From the IMG/VR virus record IMGVR_UViG_2681813321_000031: a DNA stretch of 27,060 nucleotides. One strand, 5' to 3'. Shown one piece after another: positions 22,572 through 23,713 of this stretch. A program made the position numbers and the translations under genes. Numbering within the stretch: the first letter of the stretch is position 1; the number at the start of each line of letters is the position of its first letter. Source of the DNA: a virus. Taxonomy: Duplodnaviria > Heunggongvirae > Uroviricota > Caudoviricetes. The notes beneath the pieces were generated by a model. That model was not told where the DNA came from. It saw only the letters and a list, made by a program, of their open reading frames with translations, and did no database searches.

Positions 22572-23623
22572 GGGGACGCTGGGTGATTGAAGGCGACCTG
22601 TCCAGTTACTTCGACACCGTACATCATCGACTGCTGATGAAGGCTGTACGCCGCAGGATCAGTGACGCACGTTTCATGACTCTGCTGTGGAAAACCATCA
22701 AGGCGGGACATATCGATGTCGGTCTCTTTCGGGCGGCCAGTGAAGGTGTGCCACAGGGCGGTGTTATATCGCCGCTATTATCGAACATCATGCTGAATGA
22801 GTTCGATCAATACCTGCATGAGCGCTACCTGAGCGGGAAAGCCAGAAAAGATCGGTGGTACTGGAATAACAGTATCCAACGGGGCCGAAGTACGGCGGTC
22901 AGAGAAAACTGGCAGTGGAAACCCGCGGTGGCGTACTGCCGCTATGCCGATGATTTTGTCCTCATCGTCAAAGGCACCAAAGCACAGGCGGAAGCCATCA
23001 GGGAGGAGTGTCGGGGTGTGCTCGAAGGCAGTCTGAAACTCAGGCTGAACATGGATAAGACTAAAATCACCCATGTTAATGACGGCTTTATCTTTCTGGG
23101 GCACAGGATCATTCGCAAACGCAGTCGTTATGGCGAGATGCGAGTGGTCTCAACGATCCCGCAGGAGAAAGCCAGAAACTTCGCCGCATCGCTGACAGCA
23201 CTGTTATCAGGCAACTACAGTGAAAGCAAAGTCGATATGGCTGAACAACTCAACCGAAAACTGAAAGGCTGGGCCATGTTCTATCAGTTCGTTGATTTTA
23301 AGGCCAAAGTCTTCAGTTATATCGACCGTGTCGTGTTCTGGAAGCTGGCTCACTGGCTGGCCCGCAAATACCGTACAGGTATCGCTTCCCTGATGAGGTG
23401 GTGGTGTAAATCACCGAAACCGGGTCAGAGCAAAACGTGGGTTTTATTTGGTAAAACCAATCACGGCAAGCTCAGCGGCGAAATACTGTACCGGTTGGTG
23501 GGGCAAGGCAAGAAGCTGTTCCGCTGGCGGCTACCCGAAGGTAATCCCTATCTGAGGACGGAGACCAGAAACACGTATACATCGCGCTTTACAGAAGTGG
23601 CAATGGCGTTCGCCAGCATTTAA
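22572..23623 (+). CDS. group II intron-encoded reverse transcriptase/maturase, 5'-truncated by the gap, no endonuclease domain
   Basis: GRWVIEGDLSSYFDTVHH, VPQGGVISPLLSNIMLNEFD and YCRYADDFVLIV parallel the RT motifs of Ll.LtrB LtrA; LKGWAMFYQF is maturase-domain-X-like. Frame is open upstream into the N-run. Confidence 0.85.
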
Positions 23624-23628
23624 ATGGA

Positions 23629-23662
23629 GAGCCGGATGCGCTGAAAGGTGCACGTCCGGTTC
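23629..23662 (+). ncRNA. group II intron domain V (catalytic hairpin)
   Basis: GAGCCGGATGCGCTGAAAGGTGCACGTCCGGTTC: 34 nt, AGC triad, GAAA tetraloop, 2-nt bulge; near-identical in architecture to the Ll.LtrB domain V as recalled. Followed by a domain VI-like hairpin with a bulged A (~23663-23711). Confidence 0.85.
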
Positions 23663-23713
23663 GGGGAGGAGAGGCAGGGAAATAGTCCGACTACGCCCTG
23701 CCTCTTACTCTAC

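Follow-up and report, generated by a model that had tools for sequence, protein, structure and literature searches.

The stretch of DNA analysed here (hereafter the window) is a 27,060-nt virus sequence (IMG/VR record IMGVR_UViG_2681813321_000031; Caudoviricetes) that is 100% identical to positions 154-27213 of CYBF01000044.1 (45,267 nt), a sequence from the short-read draft scaffold assembly GCA_001285025.1. Positions 22572-23713 (+ strand) carry the 3' part of a group II intron, which is the catalogued Escherichia coli intron E.c.I4 (bacterial open reading frame (ORF) class A), represented by its 3' 1142 nt within orfB of the insertion sequence (IS) IS911 and very probably truncated by the assembly. 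E.c.I4 is a mobile group II intron with a IIB-like RNA and stands here at its usual homing site in IS911 orfB; both the intron type and the host site are already known, and nothing differs in the sequence that is present. Numbered on the 2270-nt full-length intron, the part in the window runs from nt 1129 to nt 2270 and comprises part of domain IV with the ORF for the intron-encoded protein, followed by domains V and VI; it ends at the 3' splice site.

The RNA signature was identified with the Rfam model RF00029 (group II intron domains V and VI; gathering score: 40 bits), which matched positions 23627-23713 on the + strand over its full length (model positions 1-77 of 77; 64.9 bits, E = 7e-11) and, with the same sequence, positions 26495-26581 of the window. 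Domain V was placed at 23629-23662 (+ strand; GAGCCGGATGCGCTGAAAGGTGCACGTCCGGTTC) by the RF00029 alignment and RNAfold, as a 34-nt hairpin with an AGC triad, a 2-nt bulge and a GAAA loop. A first-pass annotation, made from the letters of the window alone, had recognised this domain V and asked that it be conserved, and its fit to the Rfam model bears this out; the spacing of 6 nt that the annotation gave between domain V and the ORF stop is to be corrected, as the stop codon TAA (23621-23623) is followed by 5 nt before domain V starts. The domain VI-like hairpin with a bulged A that had also been described was found at 23665-23711 (+ strand) by RNAfold of intron nt 2180-2270 and by the RF00029 alignment, with a lone bulged A at 23707 in the RNAfold structure. 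This A is at the branch-point position, 7 nt from the 3' end of the intron, which reads ...CUAC and falls at 23713.

The ORF at 22574-23623 (+ strand) is open from the N run that precedes the intron part, as first read, and encodes, in 349 codons and a stop, amino acids (aa) 154-502 of a 502-aa LtrA-type reverse transcriptase (RT)/maturase. Pfam searches of this fragment returned RVT_1 (E = 5e-21; profile positions 68-205 of 205 only, hence a cut that removes the N-terminal third of the RT) and, for the maturase of group II introns, GIIM (E = 5e-11); a YADD box is visible in the translation. The fragment thus holds the C-terminal part of the RT, YADD included, and domain X, after which the protein ends in a short tail that has no DNA-binding/endonuclease (D/En) domain. 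No HNH or endonuclease family appeared at E ≤ 1 in the full-length 502-aa homologue, in which RVT_1 and GIIM were the only families found. The NCBIfam model TIGR04416 scored the full homologue at 341 bits, above its cutoff of 300, and the window fragment at 198 bits, below the cutoff because the fragment is truncated. The closest solved structures are group II intron RTs, namely LtrA (5g2x; E = 2e-52 over the RT fingers/palm), GsI-IIC and others, while retron and defence RT models stayed far below their cutoffs (retron St85, 54 versus 235 bits; Drt3a, 51 versus 200; Drt2, 48 versus 390). The RT motifs, YADD box, maturase X-like region and missing C-terminal En/HNH domain that had been read from the letters were therefore all recovered, and the full-model RF00029 match together with the RVT_1/GIIM protein supports the call of a group II intron.

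Downstream of the splice site, the 3' exon at 23714-24200 (+ strand) is the right part of IS911, with the C-terminal part of orfB at 23714-24192 (TGA at 24190-24192; Pfam rve, rve_3 and rve_2) and the right terminal inverted repeat ending ...CCACTTCA at 24200. The integrase core family rve matches from 23714 onwards (profile positions 19-102 of 102, E = 2e-24), in agreement with the proposal that an IS transposase frame resumes around this position. Between this exon and the annotated IS911 of phage Sf6, identity is 98.6%. A complete IS911, with two inverted repeats, orfA and frameshifted orfB, is absent from the window, where each copy consists of the last 487 nt only.

A full-length copy of the intron was located in E. 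coli O111:H2 12A, where it spans 2270 nt (positions 4873-7142 of the 12A locus, L001), begins with GUGUGCCCGG (boundaries GUGUG...CUAC), ends ...CUCUAC at 7142 and contains the 502-aa ORF at 5544-7052, preceded by 671 nt of intron. The intron part in the window is 100% identical to L001 6001-7142, and identity with the 12A copy continues through the exon and stops exactly at window position 24200. Exon 1 of the 12A copy (IS911 orfB) ends ...GTGACCTATA and exon 2 begins TCTGGACGGG; joined as GTGACCTATA|TCTGGACGGG, they read ...W-C-G-D-V-T-Y-I-W-T-G-K-R-W..., an intact IS911 transposase frame. The IS3-family orfB that the intron had been said to interrupt is thus that of IS911, and its halves in 12A are in frame with each other when joined. 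This in-frame joining is consistent with splicing, which is predicted here and would yield the ligated IS911 exons GTGACCTATATCTGGACGGG. The first-pass annotation had also made its reading depend on a 5' GUGYG and upstream intron sequence, and the complete genomes that are 100% identical over the 1629 nt of intron part and 3' exon have a further 1128 nt of intron upstream, which open with GUGUG immediately behind the end of the IS911 exon, ...GTGACCTATA.

When the loci were compared, at least four different IS3-family exons were found to carry E.c.I4, each at the homologous codon. A single 7-nt stretch of the intron, nt 263-269 (UGUGGGU, domain I), can base-pair with the 7 nt that end the exon in both exon types with an available 5' flank, and is a candidate for exon-binding site (EBS) 1. 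The base 5' of this candidate EBS1 cannot pair with the first base of exon 2, which argues against IIA-type delta-delta' pairing. A search for EBS2 was ambiguous, with three equally good 6-mers, and the minimum-free-energy fold of intron nt 1-671 was uninformative for the architecture of domain I.

The stretch 22572-24200 (1629 nt) is 100% identical in three complete E. coli chromosomes. Among 5426 complete E. coli genomes, 1054 had matches covering at least 80% of it, and its annotation there reads 'ltrA: group II intron reverse transcriptase/maturase | IS3 family transposase'. The match in E24377A (NC_009801 3341172-3342800, minus strand, 99.8% identity) places the intron at 3341659-3343928, and a published supplementary table lists copy E.c.I4-8 at NC_009801 3341658-3343928 on the minus strand (PMC3522654). 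Judged by these coordinates, the match is the published copy E.c.I4-8, with an intron length of 2270 nt here versus 2271 nt by the BLAST coordinates of PMC3522654. Identity above 95% to a named reference is the database rule for the same intron (PMC3552965), and copies at 99.8% and 100% exceed it. E.c.I4 has been assigned to bacterial ORF class A (PMC3522654 supplement; Toro & Martinez-Abarca, PMC3552965), a class without an En domain that had only three nearly identical members (PMC3552965, which lists the ORF classes lacking En), and the RNAs of ORF classes outside ML, CL and C are variants of the IIB structure (PMC4028801). The class and boundaries that the first-pass annotation had left to database comparison are thus class A, E.c.I4 and GUGUG...CUAC. 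Reported targets of E.c.I4 are IS629, IS911, ISEc16 and ISEc31, and its spread has been discussed as following from carriage in IS that are multicopy, non-essential and horizontally transferred (PMC3522654).

By analogy with other group II introns, E.c.I4 would be transcribed together with IS911, and its protein would aid RNA folding and splicing via branching at the domain VI adenosine, which would restore the orfB frame (V-T-Y-I|W-T-G). The excised ribonucleoprotein would then reverse-splice into intron-less versions of the same sites in IS3-family elements, guided by pairing between EBS and intron-binding sites (IBS). Because the protein has no endonuclease, an existing DNA 3' end, such as the nascent strand at a replication fork, would have to prime cDNA synthesis. 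Other En-less introns have been described as priming their cDNA from an existing DNA end.

The absence of the 5' half is most probably an assembly and scaffolding effect and not biology: the intron looks halved because the draft scaffold breaks there and was mis-joined to prophage DNA. Immediately upstream of the intron part, positions 22551-22571 are a run of 21 N, a scaffold gap that is also present in the source scaffold record (L005 9980-10000). Beyond this gap lies prophage DNA and not the 5' exon. The adjoining prophage segment (21333-22550, + strand) ends at the N run, is not intron, and holds the 3' end of a 182-aa ORF, a gene for a 252-aa phage protein (weak Pfam match to DUF551), a gene matching DUF4222 and the first 8 nt of a 44-aa ORF. 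Intron domains I-III, the RT N-terminus (aa 1-153 of 502) and the left part of IS911 were absent from the window and from 21 kb of scaffold. The first-pass annotation was accordingly right that domains I-III and the RT N-terminus are missing from this sequence; its further idea that the 5' half had been lost within the N gap holds for the absence, and fails for a contiguous intron with a short gap, as prophage lies on the other side. At least 1128 nt of intron and the left part of IS911 are missing at a place where 21 N are printed, and the length of this N run is no measure of how much has been lost from the sequence.

The same arrangement is printed twice. Positions 24201-25418 (+ strand) repeat 21333-22550 exactly (100% by self-blastn) and abut the IS911 terminus; they are followed by a second, identical run of 21 N (25419-25439), a second, identical copy of E.c.I4 nt 1129-2270 (25440-26581, + strand; domain V at 26497-26530) and a second 3' part of IS911 orfB (26582-27060, + strand), at whose stop codon the window ends and the scaffold runs on into an island. 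By self-blastn, 21333-24192 equals 24201-27060 at 100%, N run included, with a repeat unit of 2868 nt.

Comparison with the 12A chromosome shows what the pieces belong to. The prophage integrated at mlrA in 12A (NZ_CP077479.1) matches window positions 19000-22550 at 100% identity (3551 nt). Beyond the matching stretch, this prophage continues with the 44-aa ORF, xis, int and mlrA and has no intron there. If the join at the gap is an artefact, the DNA of the isolate past 22550 would run into GCATTTGAACGATGG... (the 44-aa ORF, then xis). On the far side of the second copy, scaffold positions 12869-20497 (L005) match L001 6001-13629 at 100% over 7629 nt, which is the BCCT / IS3 / lpxM / virK / capU island; in 12A this island lies 2.77 Mb from the mlrA prophage and contains the full-length intron. 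The full-length intron of the isolate most probably sits in this leuX-side island, reached by the second copy. Two ungapped joins in the window, at ~9756 and at 24200/24201, occur in 0 of the 5426 complete E. coli genomes, and the junction of the IS911 end with phage DNA, searched as an exact 34-mer pattern, gave 0 matches in the viral_contigs, genome_contigs and metagenome_contigs collections. On the simplest reading, IS911 with E.c.I4 and the parts of two related prophages would be the repeats that broke the short-read assembly; a contig starting in mid-intron would have been attached to the end of a prophage contig across 21 N, and this pair would have been used twice.

An apparent 7.5-kb tandem duplication is present further upstream, where window positions 2200-9761 align to 9751-17318 at 98% identity with 121 mismatches and 25 gaps. 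Positions 1-9761 and 9751-22550 both align to one stretch of the 12A prophage, at 98.5% and 99.9% respectively, and the duplication looks like two related prophages chained by the assembler.

Several observations weigh against assigning the truncation to the assembly. Neither the stop of the phage contig at 22550 nor the start of the intron contig at nt 1129 is an obvious repeat boundary. Of the single-nucleotide polymorphisms (SNPs) that are common between intron copies, the nearest one (nt 1118) does not adjoin nt 1129, no truncation boundary common in complete genomes falls there either, and complete genomes are contiguous across nt 1129, with at least 80% of a 600-nt probe centred there covered in 2201 of the 2279 matching genomes. 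Two prophage types that share the DUF4222 gene are identical for at least 50 nt beyond 22550. At 24200/24201, the junction between the IS911 terminus and phage base 21333 (GTTGACCACTTCA|TGGGAATAAGC) contains no N and falls exactly at the IS end; such a gap-free junction resembles a real IS911 insertion, and the odd layout may in part be biological. As to splicing and mobility, no experimental work on class A introns was found in the literature searched.

Two specific explanations for the break points were considered and rejected. Nt 1129 as a general repeat boundary was discarded on the contiguity of the complete genomes and the position of the nearest common SNP, and a divergence of prophage families at 22550 (mlrA-type versus yecE-side-type int modules) on the identity that extends at least 50 nt past this position. 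At least 46 collection blocks have contigs whose first base is nt 1129 or 1130; this proves nothing, as these contigs were retrieved by an exact look-up of the partial protein and reflect a selection effect. An identical 80-aa DUF4222 protein was observed in two prophage families, one with a 428-aa Int at mlrA and the other with a 437-aa Int near DUF72 / MAPEG / cmoA-like genes. This sharing illustrates the mosaicism that confuses short-read assembly here.

One alternative keeps the gap join as an artefact and takes only the junction of the IS911 end with phage base 21333 as real: a second IS911, with or without E.c.I4, would have inserted into the 182-aa prophage ORF (20908-21456; no Pfam match), within which base 21333 lies, either in the isolate, perhaps in a second prophage copy, or in part of the culture; IS911/E.c.I4 and the prophage segment 21333-22550 would thereby have become repeats in the assembly graph, with the gap join as the artefact that resulted. 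We hold this tentatively, as quite possible, and as a refinement of the assembly explanation that does not contradict it. The junction lies precisely at the IS911 terminal inverted repeat without N, a de Bruijn assembler needs junction-spanning reads to print it, the uninterrupted version of the phage site (CCATTTACTGGGAATAAGC) is also in the scaffold at 21325-21340, and two prophage copies related at 98% are present in the window. On the other hand, the window has neither the left junction of IS911 with phage DNA nor a target-site duplication, the right junction was found nowhere else among the 5426 complete genomes and the three scanned collections, and gap-filling software can also make such joins.

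It is improbable that the layout is real as printed, with a 5'-truncated E.c.I4 (from nt 1129) and the right end of IS911 fused to the prophage ~21 nt past 22550 and the 2.87-kb unit standing in tandem between prophage and island. The scaffolder did arrange the pieces this way and estimated the gap to be small, the junction of the IS911 end with phage base 21333 is contiguous and exactly at the IS terminus, and E.c.I4 remnants do occur in IS3-family elements of related Stx prophages (JNE110649, intron nt 1-1834, in the same early-left region). Yet a real fusion would put the mlrA prophage beside an island from which it is 2.77 Mb distant in the complete genome with 100% identity; two exact copies that share even their N run are typical of an assembly path that went through a repeat loop twice; a further unnatural join stands at ~9756; and the junction is in no complete genome or scanned collection. 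If the layout were nevertheless real, the isolate would carry a truncated E.c.I4/IS911 remnant joined to the early-left end of a lambdoid prophage and amplified as a tandem unit, and an IS-borne group II intron would have taken part in a prophage-island rearrangement.

That the RT is no intron protein at all and instead a domesticated or defence RT (retron, DRT or group-II-like) of the prophage, as might be thought from the prediction of the window as prophage and from models of Drt2, Drt3a and retron RTs that match weakly and only in part, is a reading to which we give practically no credence and which is already refuted by domains V and VI, the profile scores and the IS3-family exon flanks, since those matches reach 18-54 bits against cutoffs of 200-600 while the full protein passes TIGR04416, a complete domain V/VI and a 3' splice site lie 3' of the ORF, an IS911 orfB codon is split between the two flanks, and the adjacency to the prophage is most probably a scaffold artefact.

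Other copies of E.c.I4 were seen outside complete chromosomes. The Logan contig ERR1578719_80737 (human gut metagenome) carries in positions 1-2300 a circular permutation of E.c.I4, in which ...CUCUAC is directly followed by GUGUGCC..., with a 31-nt terminal overlap; this could be head-to-tail intron DNA, circle-derived reads or a k=31 graph artefact. The head-to-tail junction was found in 0 of the 5426 complete E. coli genomes, and a MEGAHIT contig from the same run, ERR1578719, has a normal exon instead. The Stx1-converting phage JNE110649 (LC727904.1) contains at 3845-5706 an unannotated, 3'-truncated copy (28 nt of an IS629-like exon, then E.c.I4 nt 1-1834), which lies between homologues of window positions 20916-21451 and 21449-21593, in the same early-left region at a different site. 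The 5.1-kb record OR844776.1 ('Escherichia phage ECO111 5-P' NODE_12) has E.c.I4 in an IS629-like exon, and an insertion of ~1.34 kb (1184-2520), probably another IS, interrupts the intron at ~nt 796-808 with a 13-nt overlap of the alignment blocks.

Further Rfam matches in the window were C4 antisense RNA at 7258-7345 and 14812-14899 (minus strand; 75 and 82 bits) and the Hfq-binding small RNA isrK at 7367-7443 and 14924-15000 (minus strand; 62 bits each), so that one C4/isrK pair is present per copy of the duplicated prophage immunity / Rha-antirepressor region.

The feature carries little biological weight in itself, as catalogues have listed E.c.I4 in IS911 since the early 2000s, its annotation as ltrA is routine and about one fifth of complete E. 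coli genomes have it. Its value is a lesson in the quality of data: the source of this 'prophage' window is a mis-scaffolded draft, in which two internal stretches are duplicated exactly or nearly so and some joins are absent from finished genomes, and for this reason a group II intron that seems phage-borne or truncated should not be accepted as it stands. Surveys of group II introns in phage genomes are now under way (PMC12350094), and the same caution is relevant to them.

Among known systems, E.c.I4 of the Zimmerly group II intron database (Leclercq & Cordaux 2012, PMC3522654) is the same element, at 99.8-100% nucleotide identity, and the difference is one of extent, full copies there against nt 1129-2270 only, twice and behind an N run, in the window. 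S.f.I1 of Shigella flexneri, also class A, has an ORF reported as 99% identical to that of E.c.I4 (PMC3552965); it is named for a host other than E. coli. In E. coli K-12, the pseudogene ykfC (CP4-6 prophage region) is E.c.I4 in the same IS911 exon, 99.7% identical over nt 1-1764, where the 3' end with domains V and VI has been lost to IS5, so that the window holds the opposite half. It was considered as a competing truncated copy and rejected, being a 5' fragment (nt 1-1764, truncated by IS5) and not a 3' fragment. K-12 W3110 at ykfC and 12A (L001 2960-7629) both have the left part of IS911 with an IS30; the 12A neighbourhood differs and its intron is complete. Ll.LtrB of Lactococcus lactis (ML class, IIA), whose protein LtrA is the best-scoring solved relative of the E.c.I4 protein, has the same overall retrohoming logic, but LtrA has C-terminal DNA-binding and endonuclease domains and its intron a IIA RNA, and E.c.I4 has neither. 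RmInt1 of Sinorhizobium meliloti (class D / IIB3), the mobility of which has been studied experimentally, presumably works like E.c.I4, likewise combining an En-less RT/maturase and a IIB-type RNA with homing into an IS; it differs from E.c.I4 in its ORF class, D versus A, and in the IS that hosts it.

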